Shown: positions 18,106-29,685 of the stretch, in pieces
Layout of the letters: each line of letters begins with the position of its first letter
How positions within the stretch are numbered: position 1 is the stretch's first letter
Origin: an uncultured Spirochaetota bacterium
GTDB taxonomy: Bacteria; Spirochaetota; B62-G9; DRHN01
Reading direction: 5' to 3'
Length of the DNA: 64,000 nt
Assembly (NCBI GenBank): GCA_964521865.1
Contig: CAZFTJ010000016.1
Coordinates: 20,302 to 84,301 of the forward strand
Notes under the pieces: model-generated
Databases searched by the model: none
Told to the model about the DNA's origin: nothing
The model's input: the letters and a program-made list of their open reading frames with translations, nothing else
Position numbers and translations under genes: made by a program

Positions 18106-19884
18106 ATGCTGAAAATCATCAGATTCAGACTGAGCCTGAAGATATTTTTCTCTTTCCTTCTAATCATAATCGTACCTGCGCTTATCTCCTTTTTAATCAG
18201 TTATTCACTTGTCAAGAGAACAATAGAGTATGAAGTATCGCTCAGGCTGAAAGCGAGCATGCAGGGATTTGATGAAGAGATAAAATCAATCGAAGAGAAA
18301 TGTCTGAATGTGGCGAACACGCTCGCTGAGGATGATGAAATTCGCGGTATGGTGAGAAGAAAGGAATACGACAACCTCAAAAAAAAGCTCATGGAAATAT
18401 ACAGGCTAGGGGCTGTCGACATTATCGAGCTCGAGAATATACACGGCCAGGTGCTCTTGAGAGGACATAATCCGGATCTGGCGGGAGACATAAAGGTGGA
18501 CCAGGATATCGTTAAAAAAGGGCTGGAGGGAAAAAGCGTGGTAAGCTATGAAAGGGGGAAATCCGGATTTGCCGTGAGGGCGGTTTCCCCAATTCAGGAA
18601 GACGGCGTCACCATCGGGCTTATTATGGCGGGCAATCTCTTTTCAGAAAGGTTTGTAAATCAGATTAAAGATCTGACAGGTATGGATAGTGCCGTATACA
18701 AGGGGCATGCCAAAATAATTTCGACCTTTTCCGGACTCGATACTCTCAAGCAGCCTCTTGCCAGCAGACTGATAAAAGACGAAATGGTTGTGATGAAAGA
18801 ATCCGACATAGCTAATGAGCCCTACTATGTGATTTTTAAGCCCCTGTTTCTCAAGGATGGGACATACTGGGGCGGGCTGGCACTGGCCATGTCGAGGCGT
18901 GAAGGGGAGCGCTACCTTCGTTATTCGGTGAATACACTTTTATTCATGACAGCAGGAGGTGTATTCATAGCGCTTCTCATCTATATTCTGCTTGCAAAAA
19001 ACATAAACACATCCCTAAAAAAAATTATCACCGGGATAAACAGCATTAATATGAGCAATTTTTCAACGCGGATTGATATCAAGCGGAAGGACGAGTTCGG
19101 AAGTATCGCAGACAGCCTGAACCGGATGGTAAAGAAAATCCGTCTCTATAACAGAAGGATAAAAAAGCTCCAGGATGAGATGATCAAGTCCGCCAAGCTC
19201 AATACTGCAGGCCAGATAGCTGCCGGGATCGCCCATGAGATTCGGAATCCTTTGAGCTCCATTAAAATGATGGTGCAGGTTTTGAAAAACCGTTATGTGC
19301 CGGTGAAAGGTGCTCATGAAACAGCGGTGATAATGAATGAGATAGACAGAATCAACAAGCTGGTAAAGGAGCTTTTGGAATATTCGAAACCGAGCCCCAT
19401 GCATTTCATCAAGCAGGACATACACCGGATTATCAACGATTCACTCGATATCCTTCAATACAATATAAAGCATCAGAATATCGAGATTAGAAAGCGGTTT
19501 TGGCAGGGGCTTCCTCTTGTCGATCTCGACCCCGAGAAGGTTCAGATCGTTTTCATCAATCTTATTATAAACGCGTTCGAGGCCATGCCGGACGGAGGAG
19601 AGCTTGCGATAGAAACGGCGCAGGAGAGTGAAGAACGAATACGCGTTCAATTTTGCAATACAGGTGGAAGTATTGACAAAGCGGACCTTGATTTCATTTT
19701 CGAACCCTTTTTCACCACGAAAAAGGATGGAACCGGCCTGGGCCTTGCCCTGGTCAAGATGGTTGTGGAGAGACATTTCGGCAGGGTGGAGGTGAAAAGC
19801 GGCGGGGGTGAAACCTGCTTCACAATTTTCTTTCCCGTGCGGAGGCCGGATGCAGAAAGGCCGGGATACTTTCAATTGAAATAG
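18106..19884 (+). CDS. Sensor histidine kinase (Cache-like sensor, HAMP, HisKA, HATPase)
   Basis: Two TM segments, HAMP (DEFGSIADSLNRM), H-box AHEIRNPL, FEPFFTTK..GTGLGL. Start moved to ATG 18106. Confidence 0.92.
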   Translation: MLKIIRFRLSLKIFFSFLLIIIVPALISFLISYSLVKRTIEYEVSLRLKASMQGFDEEIKSIEEKCLNVANTLAEDDEIRGMVRRKEYDNLKKKLMEIYRLGAVDIIELENIHGQVLLRGHNPDLAGDIKVDQDIVKKGLEGKSVVSYERGKSGFAVRAVSPIQEDGVTIGLIMAGNLFSERFVNQIKDLTGMDSAVYKGHAKIISTFSGLDTLKQPLASRLIKDEMVVMKESDIANEPYYVIFKPLFLKDGTYWGGLALAMSRREGERYLRYSVNTLLFMTAGGVFIALLIYILLAKNINTSLKKIITGINSINMSNFSTRIDIKRKDEFGSIADSLNRMVKKIRLYNRRIKKLQDEMIKSAKLNTAGQIAAGIAHEIRNPLSSIKMMVQVLKNRYVPVKGAHETAVIMNEIDRINKLVKELLEYSKPSPMHFIKQDIHRIINDSLDILQYNIKHQNIEIRKRFWQGLPLVDLDPEKVQIVFINLIINAFEAMPDGGELAIETAQESEERIRVQFCNTGGSIDKADLDFIFEPFFTTKKDGTGLGLALVKMVVERHFGRVEVKSGGGETCFTIFFPVRRPDAERPGYFQLK

Positions 19885-19896
19885 AGGAGAAGCGCA

Positions 19897-21273
19897 ATGG
19901 CTCATATCCTGGTGGTTGACGATGATAGAAGCATAATTGAGAGCTTTCAATCACTTTTCAGGAGTCTGCATACGGTTCTCGGAGCGTACAACGGGAAAGA
20001 GGCGATGACTATACTCCAGGAGAACAAGGTGGACCTGGTTTTTCTCGATTACAGAATTCCCGGGGATGACGGTCTTGAAGTTTTAAAAAAGATCAGGAAG
20101 TCCGATCCGGATGTGTACATCATCGTCATATCGGGATACGGGAATTTTGAGACCATCATACAGGCAATGGCGCTCGGCGCGTTCGAATATATCGAGAAAC
20201 CGCTCGATGCGGAGAAAATCAGTTTTATAACGAAGAGGGCGCTGGAAATGAGGAAGGCAGCCTCATACGTAAAGCTCATCAAGGACCGGGAGATAGAGAC
20301 GTACAACCTGAAACGGATCATCGGAAAATCCGCAGTCATGCAGGAGGTGTTCAAGAATATAGGCAGACTGGTGAATAACGACGTATCAATACTTATTACC
20401 GGAGAGAGCGGAACCGGAAAGGAGCTCGTGGCAAGGGCGATACATTACAGCGGCGCCAAGAGGGGGGAGCCGTTTATGGCGGTGAACTGTTCCGGATTAT
20501 CCGAGACTCTCCTTGACAACGAGCTGTTCGGTCACGAACAACAGGCATTCACCGGTGCGGAGAGCCTGAAGCAGGGGAAGTTCGAGGTGGCTGGAGAAGG
20601 AACTATATTCCTCGATGAGATAGGAGATATGCCGCTTTCGATCCAGAGTAAGCTCTTGCGGGTGCTTCAGGAGAAAGAGTTTCACCGGCTCGGCGGAACG
20701 AGAATCATTCGGCTTAAAGCGCGCATTATTGCAGCGACGAATAAAAAGCTTTTCGAAGAGGTGCGGAAGGGGAATTTCAGGCAGGATTTGTTTTACCGGA
20801 TAAATGTGGCCACAATCGAAATTCCTCCGCTCAGGGAACGTCCGGGCGATATACCGCTGCTCGTCGATTACTTCATAAAAAAGGCCAATTTGAAATTAAA
20901 AAAGAATATCAAGGGTATCTCCAAGAAGGCCCTGGACGAGCTTTCGCGGTATCACTGGCCGGGTAATGTAAGAGAGCTCGAGAACATCATCGTAAATATC
21001 TGTATACACCTTCAGGGCGATTTTATAAACAGTATCCCTCATTTTCATCCGGACTACGGTACCGGGGGAGATATTTTCAATGAGTTCATCGAAAAATTCC
21101 TCGTGCAGTATGGCGGAGAGGGAAACACCTATCGGATATTGATTTCCAGGCTGGAAAAAGCGCTGTTGAATCGGATAGGTCCCAGATTTAATGATAACAA
21201 GAGTGAAATAGCAAGGTTTCTCGGCATAAGCAGAGTGACGCTTCAGAAGAAGCTCGAAGACCTGAAAAGTTAA
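19897..21273 (+). CDS. NtrC-family sigma54-dependent response regulator
   Basis: Receiver (VDDD, FLDY), Walker A GESGTGKE, QAFTGA, FLDEIGD, WPGNVRELEN, Fis-type HTH. Confidence 0.95.
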   Translation: MAHILVVDDDRSIIESFQSLFRSLHTVLGAYNGKEAMTILQENKVDLVFLDYRIPGDDGLEVLKKIRKSDPDVYIIVISGYGNFETIIQAMALGAFEYIEKPLDAEKISFITKRALEMRKAASYVKLIKDREIETYNLKRIIGKSAVMQEVFKNIGRLVNNDVSILITGESGTGKELVARAIHYSGAKRGEPFMAVNCSGLSETLLDNELFGHEQQAFTGAESLKQGKFEVAGEGTIFLDEIGDMPLSIQSKLLRVLQEKEFHRLGGTRIIRLKARIIAATNKKLFEEVRKGNFRQDLFYRINVATIEIPPLRERPGDIPLLVDYFIKKANLKLKKNIKGISKKALDELSRYHWPGNVRELENIIVNICIHLQGDFINSIPHFHPDYGTGGDIFNEFIEKFLVQYGGEGNTYRILISRLEKALLNRIGPRFNDNKSEIARFLGISRVTLQKKLEDLKS

Positions 21274-21426
21274 ATATGTTTACACATGCTGTACATATAT
21301 TGAGTGTTTAACCTGCCGACTGCAAAGCAGCCGGGCCTGTCCATATCCAACCCCGTTTCGCAATTTATAGATATATATATAATTAAAAGTTCTGCCGATC
21401 CGAGGCCGTCTATACGGCGATCGGCA
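21038..21426 (+). repeat. 389-bp direct repeat, left copy
   Basis: CTCATTTTCATCC...CGGCGATCGGCA appears identical at 27014-27402 (offset 5976). Confidence 0.95.
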
Positions 21427-21901
21427 CGAGATCTTGAGAGTGTATCGAATAAAGCTTCAAAACAGAGCTTGGAACGCCTTATCCAGAAGATGTATGAGAT
21501 TGATCCACTGGTATGTCCAAAATGCGGCCATGAAATGCGGGTAATTGCAATAATCACTGACCCTTATGAAGTAAACAAAATATTTGAATGTCTCAAAAGA
21601 AACAATGCACCACCCTTCGATAAAGTAGTCACAAAAGCATCTTGATCCTCATTTGCTTACATATCAATGAAAGAAGAAATATCCCAGGGTGAAATATGCC
21701 CGTCCATATTTTTAGAGGTACCCTGGAAGCTTCACATTTTCTTTATTCTTGACAGAATGTTCTACTACGGGTAGCATATTTATAATAAATCCGTCATTTT
21801 TCGGGAGGAAAAACATTCGTGAATATTTCAGGGGTAAATCATGGGCTTTTGGTGGTTTTTTTGCTTATTTTGGCGAATCTCAAATTGCAAAAATTCCTAT
21901 C
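21427..21901 (+). mobile_element. IS91-family (Y2/rolling-circle) element remnant: transposase 3' end plus putative ori end
   Basis: RLIQKMYEIDPLVCPKCGHEMRVIAII C-terminal motif ending at the stop at 21645. AAAAATTCCTATC at about 21889-21901 resembles, from memory, the TTCCTAT oriIS core. Confidence 0.65.
21749..21777 (+). promoter_or_regulatory. sigma70-type promoter reading towards the Rrf2 gene
   Basis: TTGACA-N17-TAGCAT. Confidence 0.5.
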
Positions 21902-22122
21902 AATTTGTTGGCGTACCCCTTTTTATAATGGTTGTTAAAAACAAGTAAATCAGGCGAAATCCTCACGAAAAGAAAAATATCCCGGAGAATTTATCACCAC
22001 AAGTTATACCATAGAGGACCAGGAGAAAGAAAATAAACAAAACCAGGAGTGACTGTTCGTTACTATATTCAGGTGCATCTACTTGGTATTCTAATTCAAT
22101 ACACTGAAACCCGGATAAAAAC

Positions 22123-22530
22123 ATGAAATTATCCCACCGGGCTGAATATGCATTGCTTGCTCTCATCCATCTTGCCGAGAATTACAGGAACGAGCTCTGT
22201 AAAATCAGCGATATTGCCATGGAAAAGCACATTCCCAGGAAATTCCTGGAGCAGATACTCATTGTACTTAACAGGGCAGGATATGTGCGGAGCAGGAAGG
22301 GTTCGCGGGGAGGATACATGCTGGCCAAACCACCCAACGAAATCACTCTGGCAGAAGTTATCAGGCTTATTGATGGAGCCCTGGCCCCAGTGGAGTCAGC
22401 AAGTACCTACTTTTATGAGCCCACTCCCCTGGAACAAAACAAGCCGGTTATGCAAATTTTCAAGGAAATCCGCAACTACATAGCAGACAGGCTTGAACAC
22501 ACCAGCCTGGCTGAACTCATTGAAGGCTGA
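22123..22530 (+). CDS. Rrf2 family transcriptional regulator (CymR-like, no Fe-S cysteine triad)
   Basis: KFLEQIL..L...GYVRSRKGSRGGYMLAKPPNEITL. The Cys triad region reads ESASTYFYEP. Confidence 0.92.
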   Translation: MKLSHRAEYALLALIHLAENYRNELCKISDIAMEKHIPRKFLEQILIVLNRAGYVRSRKGSRGGYMLAKPPNEITLAEVIRLIDGALAPVESASTYFYEPTPLEQNKPVMQIFKEIRNYIADRLEHTSLAELIEG

Positions 22531-22802
22531 AGCCTTCCATCTTTCCTCTCCCCTGCATTACTTTTTTACACCCATATTTTCCAAACTCCTTGCTTCCCTG
22601 CACGGTCACTTCTTCAGGACATTCCTCTCTCATGTTTTACTTTTTCACACCCTTTTGTCCTCAAATCTTTGCTTTTTACACCGTTACTGGCTTTAAACTT
22701 TGGGGCCCCATTAACCCTACTCCCCACCTCCCCACAAATCCAATCCCTCTCTTATCAGTGATATTACACAATAATACTTATTTCACCAGGAATATAAAAT
22801 TT

Positions 22803-22884
22803 TCTACTAAATCGGTAGAAATTATAAACTATTTTTATTTGACAAGATGTGCTTTCTGGTTTATTATTCTACTAATTCGGTAGA
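22803..22884 (+). promoter_or_regulatory. sigma70 promoter flanked by two 17-bp palindromic operators
   Basis: TCTACTAAATCGGTAGA (22803-22819), TTGACA-N17-TATTAT (22839-22867), TCTACTAATTCGGTAGA (22868-22884). Confidence 0.8.
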
Positions 22885-23032
22885 CAATATATACTATTCT
22901 ATCAGATATATTCATAAACCAATACGAGCACACAGGAAGCAAGACGTGCATAAATCTCAACTACTGTGCAGCCGTTAAGAAAAATATCTACTTAATCTAT
23001 AGGAAAAGAAGAATATCAAATTAAGGAGGCAG

Positions 23033-23392
23033 ATGGTGCGGAGTCTCAATTACCTCGTAAAGGGAAAACCAACCAGGTTTGACGACTGCATCGACTATAC
23101 CCATACATCAAAACCCCACTGTGTATCTGTAGAACTATCCTACAGGGAAATGATCGGATATAGCAGCATCTCCACCTACCTGCTGGCAAAGTACCTGTGG
23201 GAGTTTCCTGAAAGGAAGGTGGAGTGCCAGAACTGCTATGGAGTGGTATTCTTTGATCAGCCCCCGGAAAAACAGAAGCAGTGCATCAAGAGGGCAAATG
23301 CCAGGCTTCAGGAAGACCTGACACGCCTGCAGGCCCTGGGAGTTATAATAAACCAGAACCATTCGGCATTCACCTGTTCTGCCATTTATTAA
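23033..23392 (+). CDS. Hypothetical Cys-rich protein
   Basis: Strong RBS AAGGAGG, 119 aa, 6 Cys including CQNC, first gene after the operator-flanked promoter. Confidence 0.75.
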   Translation: MVRSLNYLVKGKPTRFDDCIDYTHTSKPHCVSVELSYREMIGYSSISTYLLAKYLWEFPERKVECQNCYGVVFFDQPPEKQKQCIKRANARLQEDLTRLQALGVIINQNHSAFTCSAIY

Positions 23393-23441
23393 GATAGGTA
23401 AATTTTTTTTGTGGGCACTCTGTTGAAAAGGAGCTAAAGCA

Positions 23442-24290
23442 ATGTTGGAAGCGGTACAGCAGTCAATAGGAATGGGAATACTCATTATGGTACTGGCATT
23501 TTTTGCCGAATATGTCGATTCCACTCTGGGGATGGGTTATGGGACCAGCCTAACCCCTATCTTGCTGTTATTTGGATATCAGCCCCTTCATGTAGTACCG
23601 GCTATTTTGCTTTCAGAGCTTCTAACAGGGATTCTGGCTGGAGTTGTTCACCATGCCATTGGTAATGTGGATTTTAAGTCCAAAACCACCAGCCTGAAAC
23701 ACATCACCAGTAAATTAAAACAGCTTGGACTGGTCGAATGTGCCCGACTCGGGCTTTCAGAGCATCTCAGGATTGCCCTTGTTCTGGCATTGTGCAGCAT
23801 TGTTGGGATTGTACTGTCTGTCATCATTGCCTTAAACCTCCCTGCATTTTATGTGAAGTTGTACATAGGAATACTGGTTACTATTGTAGGAGCAGCCATT
23901 CTCATAACCATGAATAAAACATTTGTCTTCTCCTGGTCGCGGATTGTTGGACTGAGTCTTATTGCCTCATTCAATAAAGGGATAAGCGGAGGCGGGTACG
24001 GCCCTGTGGTAACCGGCGGGCAGCTTCTTTCAGGGGTTGAAAGCAGAAATGCCATAGGTATCACCTCCATGGCAGAGGGGCTCACTTGTATGGTGGGATT
24101 TGGGGTCTACCTCCTTTCATCGAGTACCATTAACCTGGGGCTGGCACCTCTACTGGTAACAGGAGCACTGCTTTCGGTCCCCTTTTCCGCTCTTACAGTA
24201 AAGTGTGTACGGACCGGGGCACTCAAAAGTGTTATAGGGATAGTCACCGTTTCACTGGGTCTCATGGTAATTGTGAAGATGGCCCTGTAA
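23442..24290 (+). CDS. Sulfite exporter TauE/SafE (TSUP) family protein
   Basis: DSTLGMGYG...ISGGGYGP motifs, multi-pass membrane protein. Confidence 0.88.
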   Translation: MLEAVQQSIGMGILIMVLAFFAEYVDSTLGMGYGTSLTPILLLFGYQPLHVVPAILLSELLTGILAGVVHHAIGNVDFKSKTTSLKHITSKLKQLGLVECARLGLSEHLRIALVLALCSIVGIVLSVIIALNLPAFYVKLYIGILVTIVGAAILITMNKTFVFSWSRIVGLSLIASFNKGISGGGYGPVVTGGQLLSGVESRNAIGITSMAEGLTCMVGFGVYLLSSSTINLGLAPLLVTGALLSVPFSALTVKCVRTGALKSVIGIVTVSLGLMVIVKMAL

Positions 24291-24371
24291 GGATACAGAC
24301 CAATCGTTCCGGTATGCATAAAGTGGAGTTTAATTCCAAATCAGGTTCGACACCTGAATAATAGGGGATAT

Positions 24372-24839
24372 TCAGGCAGATTCGAGTTTTTCTAAAAATT
24401 GGGAGACATCTCTTTTATAAACACGTTCCAGTTGCAATGTAATTTCAAAAAGGTCCTTGAGCTTTTTTGTTTCCAGCTCATATCCATATGCATGCCGAAA
24501 ATAATGTCTGAATGCCCTTAGCTCATCCAGGATTTTATAAGAGTTATTACCTAACAGAGGAGGTCGAATACCTTCAATATCCAGTTTCATTCTTCTTAAC
24601 AATTCCCGGTGGTATGCTCTTTTGTTCTGTATTGTATTTTCAAAATAACCTGCTACAATTTCAAAGAGGTCTTCGAAAGCACAGTATAAAGAATGCAGCT
24701 TAAAACCCAGTGATTCTCTTTTTATAACATCGTTATCGATCCCACTGGCACGTATTTTAATATCCTCAAACAATTTTTTTATAATATTTTCCTGGTCTTT
24801 CATCTCTGCTTTAAGCAGAGCTAATTTCCCTTGGTCCAT
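24372..24839 (-). CDS. HEPN ribonuclease toxin (HepT-like)
   Basis: R-x4-H motif (RHYFRH), YCAFEDLF, overlaps the MNT gene. Confidence 0.85.
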   Translation of the reverse strand: MDQGKLALLKAEMKDQENIIKKLFEDIKIRASGIDNDVIKRESLGFKLHSLYCAFEDLFEIVAGYFENTIQNKRAYHRELLRRMKLDIEGIRPPLLGNNSYKILDELRAFRHYFRHAYGYELETKKLKDLFEITLQLERVYKRDVSQFLEKLESA

Positions 24840-25165
24840 TTGATACCCTCTGTTTTTATTTTCTCCTGAAAGTGGACATCTTTCAAGTCTATAACATCAA
24901 CCTCCATTCCCAGTTTTTCCTCTATAAACGCCTTGAGTTTAAAAAAATGCCCTGGGTCTACGCCTTCAACTGCAATATCAACATCTGACAGCTCAGTAAA
25001 CCTGCCCGGTGAAGACAGAGACCCGAAAATATAGGCTGCAGTAAAAGGATAGACTTTTTGTGCACTGGAAAGTGCCTTGTTAACTTCGTTAATAAGGCAC
25101 TTTCTTTTTTCTTCGAGTTGTTTTTTTTTCGCAGTAATGATTTGGTCAAGAAGCTCTGTGCTCAT
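24821..25165 (-). CDS. Minimal nucleotidyltransferase antitoxin (MntA-like)
   Basis: FGSL...SDVDIAV and VDVIDL motifs. Confidence 0.88.
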   Translation of the reverse strand: MSTELLDQIITAKKKQLEEKRKCLINEVNKALSSAQKVYPFTAAYIFGSLSSPGRFTELSDVDIAVEGVDPGHFFKLKAFIEEKLGMEVDVIDLKDVHFQEKIKTEGIKWTKGN

Positions 25166-25321
25166 CTGAAACGTTAATCCTTTTACACTGGTATACCGTA
25201 TAACATACTACCAGATACAACACTTCCCGGTTTCTTACGATAATAAATAAGCCTGCTGGATGGTTTAGTCAATTTCTTTTACCTTTTCAAACCGGAATTG
25301 TTAAAGTAAAGTATATTTGCA

Positions 25322-27013
25322 CAGCAATTCTAAATTTGCAAGCATAGCAGCACCAAGAGGATAGTCACAGCAAATTATAACTGTATACTTTTTTATACAT
25401 CTAGACTTTTTCTCCTTTTTCCTGGATATTACTTACAATGGACATACAGGGAGGGGACATTTTCAGCACCGTATGCTCTTTTCTCACCACCACTATCCAA
25501 TCGTTTCCCGACCTCAGAAGTGGTAAGAATACACAGTACTCGATGAAGGACATTGCCCTCTCTGCGTTTGGGGCATTCTTCTGCCAAAGCCCGTCCTTTT
25601 TAGCCTATCAACGCCTTATGCAGGAGGCCCGAGGCAGCAATAACGGCAGGACGCTGTTTGGGCTTCAGAAGCTTCCTACCGACAACCAGATTCGCAATCT
25701 CTTGGACCCCGTAGATCCGAAGCTGTTGTGGCCAGTCTATCGGCAAACCTTCAGGTATCTGCAGAAGCAGGGAGTGGTGAAGAGATTTCGCAGTTTCGCC
25801 AACATGCTTTTTGTGGCGATAGATGGCACGGGATATTTCTACTCCGAATCGATTCACTGTGATCAGTGCAATGTTGCACACCACCGAGATGGGGGTGTAA
25901 CCTATTCGCATACGGCGTTGATGCCGGCGGTAGTCGGACTCGACATACCGCAGGTGATTCCCCTGGAGCCTGAGCTCGTCACACCGCAGGATGGGTACAA
26001 GAAACAGGACTGTGAAGCAGTGGCAGCCAAACGGTGGATTCGCAGCATGGGCAATCGTTTAAGCCCTCTGGGGGTCACACTTTTGGGCGGCGCGCTCTAC
26101 GCAACACAGACCATGATCAAGGTGGTAGTCAAAAAGAAGCTTAATTACCTCTTTGTCGCTAAGCCTAAGCATCATAAATATTTATACGAGGAGCTTCAGT
26201 CCTTTGAGAAGCTGGGGGAGATACAGAAGCTCAAACGCACACAGTGGACCGGCAAGAAACACCGCCACCTCCTCTACCGCTATATCAACGGGGTCCCGCT
26301 CGTGGATGCAGAGCATCCTATCGAAGTGAACTGGGTTGAGTTCAGCATAGCAAATGACAAAGGTGAAACCACGTACCGAACCGCCTTCATCACCAATCAC
26401 CTCATTACGGAACAGAATGTGGAAGATTTGGTCAAAGCGGGACGGTGTCGCTTGAAGATCGAAAACGAGGATATCAATACCCTGAAGACCAAGGGATATC
26501 ATTTTGAGCATAACTTCGGCCACGGTACGCAGTATCTGTCTCAGCTGCTTTTGTCGCTGAATATCCTGGCCTTCCTGTTCTACACGGTGCTGAAGTTGTT
26601 AGATAAACGATGCACCCTGCTCCGAAAAACCCTCCCATGGCGTGATACCTTCTTCCAGCATATCTCCGCACTGACACAATACCTGTGCTTTGAAAGTTGG
26701 CAGCATCTCATGCTGTCTATGCTCACAGGCCTGAAGCTGCAAGACCCGTATGCCAATCCTCCTTAGCGGTGGCATGCCCCCGTTTCATGAAATCCTTTGT
26801 GCTGTCCCTGTATACACACCCTCATCCGTTTGCCACTGAGTATCCCTGAAATTTAATAACGTATGTTCGTCCGGTTCTTCGATGTGTTCTTTAAATCGTT
26901 GTGCTCCCATTGGTACTGTCAAAGATCTTGTGCCATGAGATTAACATGTAGGCATCTTATATTGTCCGATCGCTATCAATTATCTTCCCATACCCCCATA
27001 TTTAGAATTGTTG
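25322..27013 (+). mobile_element. ISNCY-like insertion sequence, 1692 bp
   Basis: Terminal inverted repeats CAGCAATTCTAAATTTG and CATATTTAGAATTGTTG (15/17 match) enclose the transposase. No target-site duplication visible. Confidence 0.8.
25438..26766 (+). CDS. DDE transposase (ISNCY-like), probably inactive
   Basis: FPDLRSGKN..YS...SPSFLAYQR, AIDGT and KIENE present. The expected GDxLY reads GGALY. Confidence 0.88.
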   Translation: MDIQGGDIFSTVCSFLTTTIQSFPDLRSGKNTQYSMKDIALSAFGAFFCQSPSFLAYQRLMQEARGSNNGRTLFGLQKLPTDNQIRNLLDPVDPKLLWPVYRQTFRYLQKQGVVKRFRSFANMLFVAIDGTGYFYSESIHCDQCNVAHHRDGGVTYSHTALMPAVVGLDIPQVIPLEPELVTPQDGYKKQDCEAVAAKRWIRSMGNRLSPLGVTLLGGALYATQTMIKVVVKKKLNYLFVAKPKHHKYLYEELQSFEKLGEIQKLKRTQWTGKKHRHLLYRYINGVPLVDAEHPIEVNWVEFSIANDKGETTYRTAFITNHLITEQNVEDLVKAGRCRLKIENEDINTLKTKGYHFEHNFGHGTQYLSQLLLSLNILAFLFYTVLKLLDKRCTLLRKTLPWRDTFFQHISALTQYLCFESWQHLMLSMLTGLKLQDPYANPP

Positions 27014-27249
27014 CTCATTTTCATCCGGACTACGGTACCGGGGGAGATATTTTCAATGAGTTCATCGAAAAATTCCTCGTGCAGTATGGCGGAGAGGGAA
27101 ACACCTATCGGATATTGATTTCCAGGCTGGAAAAAGCGCTGTTGAATCGGATAGGTCCCAGATTTAATGATAACAAGAGTGAAATAGCAAGGTTTCTCGG
27201 CATAAGCAGAGTGACGCTTCAGAAGAAGCTCGAAGACCTGAAAAGTTAA
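27014..27249 (+). pseudogene. Duplicated C-terminal (HTH) fragment of the sigma54 response regulator
   Basis: HFHPDYGTGG...ARFLGISRVTLQKKLEDLKS is identical to the end of 19897-21273. Confidence 0.9.
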
Positions 27250-27402
27250 ATATGTTTACACATGCTGTACATATATTGAGTGTTTAACCTGCCGACTGCA
27301 AAGCAGCCGGGCCTGTCCATATCCAACCCCGTTTCGCAATTTATAGATATATATATAATTAAAAGTTCTGCCGATCCGAGGCCGTCTATACGGCGATCGG
27401 CA
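27014..27402 (+). repeat. 389-bp direct repeat, right copy (duplicated regulator 3' end plus upstream region of the PiT operon)
   Basis: Starts at the base after the IS right inverted repeat. Identical to 21038-21426. Confidence 0.95.
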
Positions 27403-27413
27403 TGAAATTTGCC
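27397..27413 (+). promoter_or_regulatory. sigma54 (-24/-12) promoter
   Basis: TCGGCATGAAATTTGCC with GG 27399-400, N10, GC 27411-412. RBS AGAGG and ATG 27438 follow. Confidence 0.7.
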
Positions 27414-27437
27414 TTTAAAAAATAGAGGTAAAAACCC

Positions 27438-28046
27438 ATGCGTATGTTTGCCGGCATCATGAAGAAGAGGGTTGAGCTGGAACAGGGTGTCATCGGCGTT
27501 ATTGCAGAGCTGCAACAGTTCGTAGAGATACTTCTGGAATCGGAAGATTACGATACCCTGCAGAGAAATTTCAACAGGATCATTGAAATTGAAGCTGATT
27601 TCGAGAGCTCGGTGAATATGTTTAATGAAAAACTCGTCAATCGGTACAACCTGCCCTTTTACTGGCAGGATATATATGCCGTCGTGCAGTGTATGGAAAA
27701 ATTGAACAGCCTGCTCCATATCTACTACAATAAATATCTGATATATAAAAATACGGTTTCCTATAGAATATTACTCGATATAGAGCGTACCAGTCTGATC
27801 AACCTGAAGAACTTTTTTACGTATTACTTGAAAAACAGAAAGTATGTATCCGAGCTCTTGAAGAACAATCGGCTTCTGCTCAAGGACTTTTTGCGCGAAT
27901 ATATCCGGATTGTCGGTGCAACGCTATTCGACGGGTTTTCGCACAGGGGGTGTTATGAAATCGGGGAGGTCTTTGAAAAAATGAACGATGAAAATGAAAA
28001 TATCCATACCATGCTGAATAAAATATTCATCGGCGTAAATTTATGA
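27438..28046 (+). CDS. Divergent DUF47/PhoU-like phosphate transport accessory protein
   Basis: IEIEAD...NRYNLPFYWQDIYAVVQCME pattern, helical, precedes PiT. Confidence 0.6.
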   Translation: MRMFAGIMKKRVELEQGVIGVIAELQQFVEILLESEDYDTLQRNFNRIIEIEADFESSVNMFNEKLVNRYNLPFYWQDIYAVVQCMEKLNSLLHIYYNKYLIYKNTVSYRILLDIERTSLINLKNFFTYYLKNRKYVSELLKNNRLLLKDFLREYIRIVGATLFDGFSHRGCYEIGEVFEKMNDENENIHTMLNKIFIGVNL

Positions 28047-29047
28047 TTGATTTGGTGCTGTTCGTTTCAGTCGCACTTGTCCTGGTGTTTTCATTTTCAA
28101 ACGGAATGAAAGACGGATGTAACGTTACAGCCACGGCCATTGCTTCGCGATCGTTTTCCAGAAGAAATGCGATGCTCATAGTCGTCTCTGCGGAATTTCT
28201 CGGGCCTTTTGTGCTGGGTACGCCGGTTGCCATTACCGTTGCAAGCGGAATAATCAATATAGATATTTTACCGGTCGGAAAGGAGGCAGTTCTTTTGATC
28301 CTTGCCGGGATTACGGGGGCGCTGTTATGGAACGTTGTAACATGGGTGTTCAGGCTGCCGACAAGCTCATCATTTGCCCTCGTCGGCGGCTTGATAGGAC
28401 CGCCTCTCTATCGGTTTGGAGCTGCGGCTGTGCCGTGGAAAATATTTTGCACCAGAGTGATCGGCGCACTGTTTTTTTCACCGATTTTCGGCATGATCTT
28501 CGGTTATCTGTCATACAGGATGCTCGAATATTTTTTCAGGAATGCATCGTTCAGGGCAACGAAATACATCATGAAGGGACAGATTGCGAGCCTTGTTTTT
28601 CTGGGGCTCAACCATGGAAGCAATGATTCTCAAAAAGCAATGGGAATTATCGCCCTTCTCCTGTTTCTCGGGGGGAAAACGGCGGGGATCCAGATTGCTT
28701 CATGGATAAAAATGGCAAGCATCTCATCGCTTGTCCTGGGTATAACGATGGGCGGGGTTAAAATTATAAAGACGGTAGGTTATAGTATCTTTCAACTTCG
28801 TCCGATTCATTCGCTTTCTTCACACATATCGGCATCCGTTGTTCTGCTCTTTTCGAACATGGCCGGTGCGCCGGTGAGCACGACACAGGTCATTACCTCG
28901 TCGGTAATGGGAGTCGGGAGCGCATTCAGGGTAAAGAGCGTCCGCTGGTCGCTTATTTTCATAATTATCTGGAGCTGGATTCTTACGATACCTCTCTCTG
29001 CGCTCGTTTCCGTCATCATATACATCTTTATTATCGCAATATTTTGA
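28043..29047 (+). CDS. Inorganic phosphate transporter, PiT family
   Basis: NGMKDGCN..AT, PTSSSFALVGG, HGSNDSQKAMG, PVSTTQV signature. Confidence 0.93.
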   Translation: MIDLVLFVSVALVLVFSFSNGMKDGCNVTATAIASRSFSRRNAMLIVVSAEFLGPFVLGTPVAITVASGIINIDILPVGKEAVLLILAGITGALLWNVVTWVFRLPTSSSFALVGGLIGPPLYRFGAAAVPWKIFCTRVIGALFFSPIFGMIFGYLSYRMLEYFFRNASFRATKYIMKGQIASLVFLGLNHGSNDSQKAMGIIALLLFLGGKTAGIQIASWIKMASISSLVLGITMGGVKIIKTVGYSIFQLRPIHSLSSHISASVVLLFSNMAGAPVSTTQVITSSVMGVGSAFRVKSVRWSLIFIIIWSWILTIPLSALVSVIIYIFIIAIF

Positions 29048-29685
29048 AAAACAGGGCAACAGAAATGAGAAAACATATATTTTTCATGAAAAGAAACAGA
29101 GTCGATTTTTATCAGCTGCTTATCGATCACGCCCAAAAAGTATATGAGGCATACAAGTTTCTTGTCGATTATCTGGAACAAAATTCAAACAGCGATCCGG
29201 AAAGTATATTTTTTCTGGAGAGAGAGGCGGACGATCTGCGCAGAATACTCATAGAGAATCTGAACAAAACACTCATCACGCCTTTCGACAGAAAAGATAT
29301 ATTCGCACTTTCACGAGCAATTGACGATATCATCGATGCGGCAAAGAGCACAATCGAGGAGATCCGCCTTTTTAAAATTGAGCACACAAATGATCTTCTG
29401 CTGAAATCGAAGACCCTGAAAGCCGGCACACTTGAAATTTATGATGCTCTGAAAAATATGAAAAAGAATCCGGAAGTTGCGATGGAGCACGCAAAAAGGG
29501 CAAAGGCAACGGAAAACCAGATGAACATACTCTATCTGGAATCTCTTGCACAGCTCTTCGAAAACGATGAAAACACACCTGCATTCATGATGAAAATGCG
29601 TGAATTGTACAGGCATTTAAAACGATCTGCAAACAGATGCGACGAGGCGGCCAATATCATTTCCGATATAATCGTGAAATCCTGA
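29044..29685 (+). CDS. DUF47 family protein
   Basis: LEREADDLRR...LITPFDRKDIFALSRAIDDIID. Confidence 0.9.
   Translation: MKNRATEMRKHIFFMKRNRVDFYQLLIDHAQKVYEAYKFLVDYLEQNSNSDPESIFFLEREADDLRRILIENLNKTLITPFDRKDIFALSRAIDDIIDAAKSTIEEIRLFKIEHTNDLLLKSKTLKAGTLEIYDALKNMKKNPEVAMEHAKRAKATENQMNILYLESLAQLFENDENTPAFMMKMRELYRHLKRSANRCDEAANIISDIIVKS

Follow-up and report, generated by a model that had tools for sequence, protein, structure and literature searches.

How a segment of DNA that carries no integrase comes to lie between two long and identical direct repeats is the question raised by a locus in the 64,000-nucleotide stretch analysed here (the window), which is taken from the genome of an uncultured Spirochaetota bacterium (GCA_964521865.1, contig CAZFTJ010000016.1, positions 20,302 to 84,301). 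In this locus a 389-bp repeat, hereafter R, occurs at 21038-21426 and again at 27014-27402, the copies being spaced 5,976 bp start-to-start, with an insert of 5,587 bp (21427-27013) between them. An earlier examination of the sequence alone (the sequence-only reading) had left three origins side by side, namely one-ended insertion by an insertion sequence (IS), integration of a circle, or an assembly chimera. Of these possibilities, a real integrated structure is favoured by the analysis below, while a single coordinated transposition is unlikely. More specifically, the reading that we prefer, at a probability of about 0.55, is that of a real chromosomal insertion accompanied by a long duplication of its target, in which two joins of different chemistry would have been made on two copies of the locus.

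The repeat, its empty site and its probable integration

The two copies of R are identical at 389 of 389 positions, in agreement with the sequence-only reading, which had also placed the borders at exactly these bases, and the identity extends for 0 bases on either side. By self-BLAST of the whole genome (4.22 Mb in 40 contigs), R is the sole 100%-identical repeat above 210 bp; neither this comparison nor a genome search finds a further copy elsewhere in the genome, and an exact 50-mer from the middle of R has 0 matches in the metagenome contig and genome contig collections. The repeat is made up of the final 236 bp of a regulator gene (codons 381-458, encoding a linker and a Fis-type helix-turn-helix, HTH) followed by 153 bp of downstream DNA. 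The gene in question (19897-21273, on the forward strand, as are all features below unless otherwise indicated) is intact and encodes a sigma54-dependent NtrC-type response regulator of 458 amino acids (aa), with Pfam matches to Response_reg, Sigma54_activat (3.7e-66), AAA_lid_14 and HTH_8; a histidine-kinase gene lies upstream of it, and its last 78 codons fall within the left copy of R. The right copy consists of an orphan 3' fragment of the regulator gene (27014-27249) and the native upstream region of a phosphate-transporter operon (27438-29685), which encodes a 202-aa protein, a PiT phosphate transporter (Pfam PHO4, 2.1e-67) and a PhoU_div/DUF47 protein (Pfam PhoU_div).

An empty site, for which the sequence-only reading had suggested looking in related genomes, is indeed present in two genomes of the same genus that belong to species different from that of the window (G001 and G002). 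In G001, the regulator gene, whose product has the same length, a single R-equivalent and the genes for the 202-aa protein, PiT and DUF47 stand in one colinear row, and an artificial join of position 21426 to 27403 is colinear with this row at 77.8% identity over 2168 aligned positions. The right junction is common to G002, which has the same ...GATCGGCA|TGAAATT... sequence. Since two genomes of the genus carry a single R joined directly to the operon, the segment between the R copies is an insertion. By this comparison, junction 27402|27403 is ancestral, and the left join at 21426|21427 (J1) and the right join at 27013|27014 (J2) are new. R itself, which is 71-73% identical to G001 where its flanks are 76-80% identical, is native to the host locus. 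In other words, each copy of R has one ancestral flank, as would result from a target duplication or from integration by a single crossover.

The arrangement preserves both a regulator and a promoter, as had been supposed from the sequence alone. The left copy of R completes the 458-aa regulator, and only the right copy retains a sigma54-type promoter, GGCATGAAATTTGCC (27399-27413; GGCAT-N5-TTGC), a candidate recognised by its pattern, which is kept in both G001 and G002 and for which the genome contains rpoN. R ends between the -24 GG and the -12 GC of this putative promoter, of which the right copy alone has a whole version; beside the left one, IS91-type sequence stands in place of the -12 GC.

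The boundaries of R can also be recognised in an independent assembly at k=31 (Logan contigs, run SRR14802574). Its contigs are 100% identical to the window but break k-1 = 30 nucleotides (nt) inside each end of R, one of them ending at 21067 and another starting at 27373. The boundaries of R are therefore true branch points in the read data, R forming a node with two ways in and two ways out. Such a topology equally fits an integrated copy or an empty site together with a 5,976-bp circle, and it is exactly what would be seen if an empty-site chromosome and a separate circle of that size, or a tandem array of R plus cargo, had been threaded together once by the assembler. It is also the case that other contigs of the 40-contig assembly end at repeats of 200-350 bp, suggesting short-read assembly, and that a circle bearing R would recombine in and out. 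Set against this, a circle bearing R would anyway equilibrate with the integrated form, and one that did not replicate could not keep the read depth needed to survive in two independent assemblies. The open reading frames (ORFs) of the insert of at least 60 aa match no integrase, resolvase, relaxase or replication family in Pfam and NCBIfam, and no cargo ORF matches a partition family or any recombinase family, in accord with the lack of an integrase noted earlier; comparison of the cargo with 72,556 plasmids and 50,697 phages gives 0 matches. Moreover, J1 and J2 are the sole junctions of the cargo in the genome which, with no recognised replication gene, means that the cargo must be carried integrated. 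A threaded circle is thus unlikely, and it is highly probable that the integrated form exists in at least part of the population, because the cargo has no recognisable replication function, is joined to other DNA only at J1 and J2, and is covered well enough to appear in two independent assemblies.

Far less credible is a chimera in which the assembly combined haplotypes from two strains that never shared one chromosome. Such a chimera would be allowed by the probable nature of the genome as a metagenome bin (40 contigs, 1.7% contamination); however, any haplotype containing J1 and J2 with a single R is the same circle as that considered above, no other linear arrangement uses both joins, and the only run in which the organism occurs contains every piece at 100% identity.

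The two borders

The right copy of R begins at the first base (27014) after the terminus of a complete IS4-like element of 1692 bp (IS-B, 25322-27013; transposase gene 25438-26766). This border had been placed immediately after the right inverted repeat of the IS in the sequence-only reading, a placement that holds when the ends of the element are set by other copies at three loci (L025, L026 and L027), comprising a 93% copy adjoining ftsH in a JGI contig, a copy in a Logan contig and an 82-84% copy. Copies of 93% identity occur in two unrelated contigs. The inverted repeat reads CAGCAATTCTAAAT / ATTTAGAATTG(C/T)TG, and the reference copies all start with CAGCAATTCTAAAT and end with ATTTAGAATTGCTG. 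The 82-84% copy (L027) is flanked by a perfect 9-bp duplication, TCTGGTAAG, which is the normal behaviour of an IS4-type element and against which R, at 389 bp, is far longer than a usual target-site duplication, as had been remarked. Around the 93% copy in L025 no long duplication was found.

No 9-bp duplication surrounds IS-B itself, the flanks of which (..ATATTTGCA vs CTCATTTTC..) are unrelated. It follows that one of the two IS-B junctions is secondary and, the duplication being absent, that IS-B did not reach this position by a simple hop; its left side remained joined to cargo. In its terminal inverted repeats, its DDE-type transposase and the 9-bp duplication of its relative, IS-B is therefore like an ordinary insertion of the IS4 family, but it is unlike one in having no such duplication and in adjoining a 389-bp repeat that takes in a further 3.9 kb of DNA left of the IS. 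Classical DDE insertion of the whole segment was rejected on the mismatched flanks of IS-B, a left end of the insert that is not an IS end, and the 9-bp duplication of the family. A composite transposon was likewise set aside, as the elements at the two ends belong to different families and one of them is a fragment, and a relic IS right end sought just to the left of IS-B gave a local alignment score no better than that of shuffled sequences.

The transposase of IS-B carries 10 private substitutions, among them D218G, W339L and R401W, at columns where 19 homologues of 57-93% identity show no variation, whereas five control sequences have 0-2 each. D218G lies in the GD.LYA motif and probably removes the second catalytic Asp. 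From these changes IS-B is probably an old and inactive relic, in contrast to the 0 differences between the copies of R. Other relics of the same type are found at C1:129904-130383, in which DGT has changed to YGT, and C33:18004-18105.

The left border is of another kind. Here R is followed by a 5'-truncated element of 479 bp, a remnant provisionally assigned to the IS91 family (IS-A, 21427-21905), which retains the last 72 transposase codons (stop at 21643-21645) and some 260 bp leading to an oriIS-type end, ...AAAAATTCCTATCAAT. The stretch homologous to the IS91 type extends from 21427-21431 as far as ~21905, where it has a conserved end, ...AAAAAYTCCTATCAAT, such that J1 lies inside the transposase gene, 72 codons from its end. 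Copies at 70-81% identity are present in 18 of 41 related genomes, with a common right end and variable left ends; Y2_Tnp (PF04986) matches directly upstream of longer copies in G002:C6 and G001:C32, and IS-A in the window has weak ISCR and IS91 matches in NCBIfam. A tblastn search of the genome with the 72-aa fragment returns only the fragment itself, with no full-length copy, although an unrelated IS91-family gene is present. As a separate observation, there are five further 3' ends of this type in the genome (C15:986-1278, C15:12735-12880, C15:18830-18996, C20:80243-80478 and C25:50870-51160). Together with window positions 21614-21905, and in many genomes of the family, such ends share a constant right terminus, a variable 5' truncation and a conserved TTGACA...TA..AT promoter-like core, a pattern that would be compatible with rolling-circle transposition ending prematurely, or with an outward promoter favoured by selection.

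On the R side of J1 stands a hairpin of 34 nt, TGCCGATC-CGAG-GCCGT-CTAT-ACGGC-GATCGGCA (21393-21426, with its second copy at 27369-27402). J1 falls at the 3' foot of the left copy, so that the description of the left R end as a hairpin foot beside a truncated IS91-like gene stands. The structure has 13 paired bases and a folding energy of -13.4 kcal/mol as DNA (z = -4.0; a fold of equal quality is reached by 0 of 200 shuffled sequences), whereas the homologous sites in G001 and G002 form no hairpin (dG -1.3 and -1.7). Its right arm carries the -24 GG of the putative sigma54 promoter. A dispersed repeat of the repetitive extragenic palindromic type was ruled out, the hairpin being unique to R in the genome. 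Relative to the orthologous sequence of G001, it was made in this lineage by about 10 substitutions in 34 nt, and these could be the result of template-switch 'perfection' of a quasi-palindrome or could mark a regulatory structure.

Possible routes to the duplication

With the borders so placed, J2 would be the work of a transposase, which would have joined the right end of IS-B into codon 381 of the regulator gene, since the join lies at an exact IS terminus, shows no homology and leaves IS-B with a left flank that is still donor DNA. J1, on the other hand, would be an illegitimate join, with no or minimal homology, between the 3' foot of the hairpin that lies beyond an intact regulator gene and the interior of an IS91-family element. 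In the target, J1 lies 389 bp downstream of J2 and, because each join would have kept its own ancestral flank, the DNA between the two would come to be present twice. Three routes, which we leave unranked, could lead to this outcome. An unequal illegitimate exchange might have taken place between a sister chromosome carrying an IS-mediated cointegrate and its intact sister; incoming wild-type DNA might have repaired a disrupted regulator, being joined by homology at one end and illegitimately at the other; or a circle carrying R might have formed and then re-entered by a RecA-dependent single crossover of the Campbell type, as in the ISCR1 model considered below. Whichever applies, selection probably explains the survival of a product that keeps both the regulator (left R) and the upstream sites and promoter of the operon (right R). 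Such a product would be favoured because, at whichever border a plain insertion had occurred, one of the two, regulator or promoter, would have been lost. Once in place, the HepT/MNT toxin-antitoxin pair of the insert may penalise loss of the segment.

A more economical scheme would be one coordinated event with a stagger of 389 nt, in effect a giant target-site duplication. In this scheme strand transfer of the right end of the IS takes place into the top strand at 21037|21038, the 3' end that this frees in the target primes displacement synthesis through R, synthesis stops at 21426, at the newly copied hairpin or at bound sigma54 holoenzyme, and the strand is then joined to the donor inside the IS91 remnant. 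The polarity is right, in that the 3'-OH of the right end joins the start of the duplicated stretch as in an ordinary target duplication. The stop would fall at the 3' foot of the hairpin, its far side, which is the earliest point at which a nascent or displaced strand could fold, and also at the -24 box of the putative sigma54 promoter, and a join made by a transposase should show no homology, as is the case at J2. A single coordinated transposition is nevertheless improbable, since the IS-B family duplicates 9 bp in events that use both ends, and the insert begins on the left with sequence unlike an IS left end; a surrogate for such an end at 21427 was rejected, as only about 3 of 10 bases, by eye, resemble the left end of IS-B. 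It also counts against the scheme that the transposase of the window copy is probably dead, that this is a single instance and that IS4-type transposases are not known to give one-ended events. If the scheme were to be generalised, long target duplications as a group might be the footprint of one-ended strand transfer, target-primed displacement synthesis up to a roadblock and illegitimate joining to the donor. Alternatively, the present unit might be a homology-guided cassette without a recombinase, which RecA would move in and out and which its toxin-antitoxin pair would hold in place. We regard these ideas as doubtful. Were one-ended transfer to be correct, the length of a duplication would record the travel of a polymerase, and the present locus would be the first case in which both ends of the event can be read.

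Site-specific integration by an integrase supplied in trans has to be weighed in the same context, with R as the attachment site and the element bringing a replacement 3' end for its target gene. Prophages e14 and 21 carry just such a replacement 3' end of icd, and the order seen here (5' part of the gene, replacement 3' end, element, orphan native 3' end) has the same topology. Against it, there is no integrase in the cargo or in the neighbouring genes, R is bordered by the terminus of one IS and the interior of another with no shared core, its copies are 100% identical instead of diverged, and it is found nowhere else in the genome. For this reason integration in trans is very improbable, and an integrase island that regenerates the 3' end of its target was rejected on similar grounds, the insert having no tyrosine or serine recombinase and the repeat being bordered by IS sequences.

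To return to the preferred reading of two joins on two copies of the locus, several points weigh against it. The IS-B transposase has accumulated its ten private changes, D218G included, yet 0 of 389 positions differ between the R copies; either J2 is older than the duplication, or R has undergone gene conversion, or a transposase acted in trans, and the model leaves this choice. IS4-family elements usually move by cut-and-paste, such that a cointegrate-type or one-ended event would be atypical. At least two events are needed, and no intermediate was found in any collection searched. At J1, the microhomology amounts to at most ~1 nt with an IS91-type relative of 81% identity as the one reference. 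Finally, the presence of both R copies on one molecule is supported at the level of assembly.

Insertions with a long target duplication are not new, and an early account of them is said to have been given in Gene in 2000 by Nobusato et al. They are established in Helicobacter, Haemophilus, Neisseria, Burkholderia and others, with repeat lengths between 46 and ~420 bp (reported pairs include 417/423, 388/397 and 384/412 bp), no recombinase and a mechanism that was left unexplained, the authors suspecting breaks made by restriction enzymes (PMC2853133). The present locus has the structural features of this class, being a recombinase-less insert of less than 20 kb (here 5,587 bp) between direct repeats of more than 30 bp (here 389), with the repeat single in genomes with an empty site (here G001, G002 and thus other species), an addiction-type module aboard and repeats that permit excision or amplification by homologous recombination (PMC2853133). 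It is, therefore, a new example of a class already described. There are differences, however, in that the cargo here is HepT/MNT with Rrf2/TauE instead of restriction-modification genes, that IS sequence is found at both ends of an insert whose class is defined as 'with no other mobile elements', and that one border is exactly an IS terminus, which points to a join by transposase and not to restriction-induced breaks (PMC2853133).

The order of parts is also that of the complex class 1 integrons formed with ISCR1. In the model of Toleman (2006), a circle produced by rolling-circle transposition and containing a gene, a truncated 3' conserved segment (3'-CS) and ISCR1 is rescued by homologous recombination, whereby the 3'-CS is duplicated (PMC6834847). 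As in those integrons, the locus consists of a repeat (21038-21426), an element assigned to the IS91 family that has no ter side and whose ori end faces the cargo (21427-21905), the cargo (21906-27013) and a second repeat (27014-27402), with no target duplication and no integrase (PMC6834847). Unlike ISCR1, which has a complete transposase, only the last 72 codons remain here and no full-length copy is present in the genome, and the cargo ends, on its far side, at the terminus of a different IS, something not expected from the rolling-circle model (PMC6834847). Rolling-circle capture by the IS91-type element as the sole mechanism was accordingly rejected, since it leaves the cargo border at the other IS terminus unexplained and the genome contains no transposase of the element. 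A third precedent is experimental: Takahashi et al. (2011) describe how a non-replicating plasmid with an addiction module enters the chromosome by IS-mediated cointegration or by crossovers at 1-3 bp of identity, the survivors being selected by post-segregational killing (PMC3031569). That system was studied in E. coli with IS1 and IS5 and with restriction-modification genes, and its abstract makes no mention of a long target duplication (PMC3031569).

The interest of the locus lies mainly in its borders. Long target duplications have been catalogued since 2000 with their mechanism unexplained, and the borders of the published cases are anonymous. In this instance they are informative, one being the terminus of an IS from a family that duplicates 9 bp and the other the foot of a lineage-specific hairpin inside a putative sigma54 promoter, and they give rise to a concrete and testable proposal, namely one transposase join and one illegitimate join on two copies of the locus. 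The class is at the same time widened from restriction-modification to toxin-antitoxin cargo, which fits with the idea that addiction modules and IS elements aid each other's establishment. Moreover, the pair of R copies is a substrate on which RecA could act either to amplify the unit or to remove it, in the latter case as the 5,976-bp circle with a perfect empty site left behind, and structures of this type are a typical site of ambiguity in short-read assembly.

Cargo and neighbouring features

Between its two IS sequences the insert contains an Rrf2-family regulator gene (22123-22530; Pfam Rrf2, 2.9e-34), a 119-aa ORF with no Pfam or NCBIfam match (23033-23392) and a gene for a TauE/SafE-family membrane transporter (23442-24290; Pfam TauE, 3e-18). 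These are followed, on the reverse strand (24372-25165), by overlapping genes for a HepT-like toxin (24372-24839; Pfam HepT-like_2, 1e-26) and an MNT nucleotidyltransferase antitoxin (24821-25165; Polbeta and NTP_transf_2). In 40 relatives, cargo DNA is represented by the IS91-type end and, in 3 of them, by weak matches of 66-79% over parts of the HepT/MNT genes, and the closest TauE homologue among 5.8 billion proteins is 63% identical. By such comparisons the cargo is foreign, and no donor for it was matched among the relatives, plasmids and phages, the TauE homologues reaching at most 63%. The gap of 500 bp between the Rrf2 gene and the 119-aa ORF contains pairs of direct repeats within 22543-22674 and 22802-22898 (53 nt at 75% identity and 32 nt at 88%), which may be operator sites for Rrf2/TauE.

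Across J2, a 128-aa ORF (26863-27249) starts inside the right end of the IS and, with no change of frame, extends into the orphan regulator fragment. Its product would consist of the Fis-type HTH without the other regulator domains (HTH_8, 7e-06) and, if expressed, could compete with the full-length regulator for binding sites. Neither this ORF nor the exact regulator protein is on any other database record. In protein clusters at 90%, the regulator, the 202-aa protein, Rrf2 and HepT are accompanied by no other genome, and the cluster of the kinase led only to the species of G002. A search of 19500-29000 with Rfam gave 0 family matches.

The same intergenic spot carries a different insert in G002, the closest relative species, in which a pair of genes for MNT (94 aa) and a HEPN-like protein (148 aa, with an RNSIAH motif), about 830 bp in all, sits exactly at the stop codon of the orthologous regulator gene and lengthens the latter to 473 aa (L012, G002:C130 1499-2226). 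Only a short AAAAG-type repeat is found at its ends, and the same arrangement occurs in L035, L036 and L037, in three independent assemblies. The spot has, in other words, acquired a nucleotidyltransferase toxin-antitoxin pair twice and independently.

Elsewhere in the genome there are other long repeats, none of which has the architecture described here, the long pairs on contigs C1 and C6 being paralogous gene fragments of 98% identity without IS borders. On C6, a 356-bp direct repeat (108585-108940 and 113799-114154, 98% identical, 5.2 kb apart) has as its second copy an internal fragment of a membrane-protein gene with two tandem paralogues, adjoining a primase-like gene. On C1, direct repeats of ~975 bp (104642-105615 and 116507-117683, 98% identical, 12 kb apart) look like a disrupted gene which, from its translation, we take to resemble pRiA4b ORF-3. 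Lastly, a dispersed repeat of ~165 bp, present in at least 9 copies at 95-99% identity (for example C1:45544-45709, C1:175645-175811, C1:378046-378215, C4:239747-239914, C5:48625-48791, C5:173408-173575, C10:37798-37964 and C13:82669-82835), resembles a miniature transposable element.

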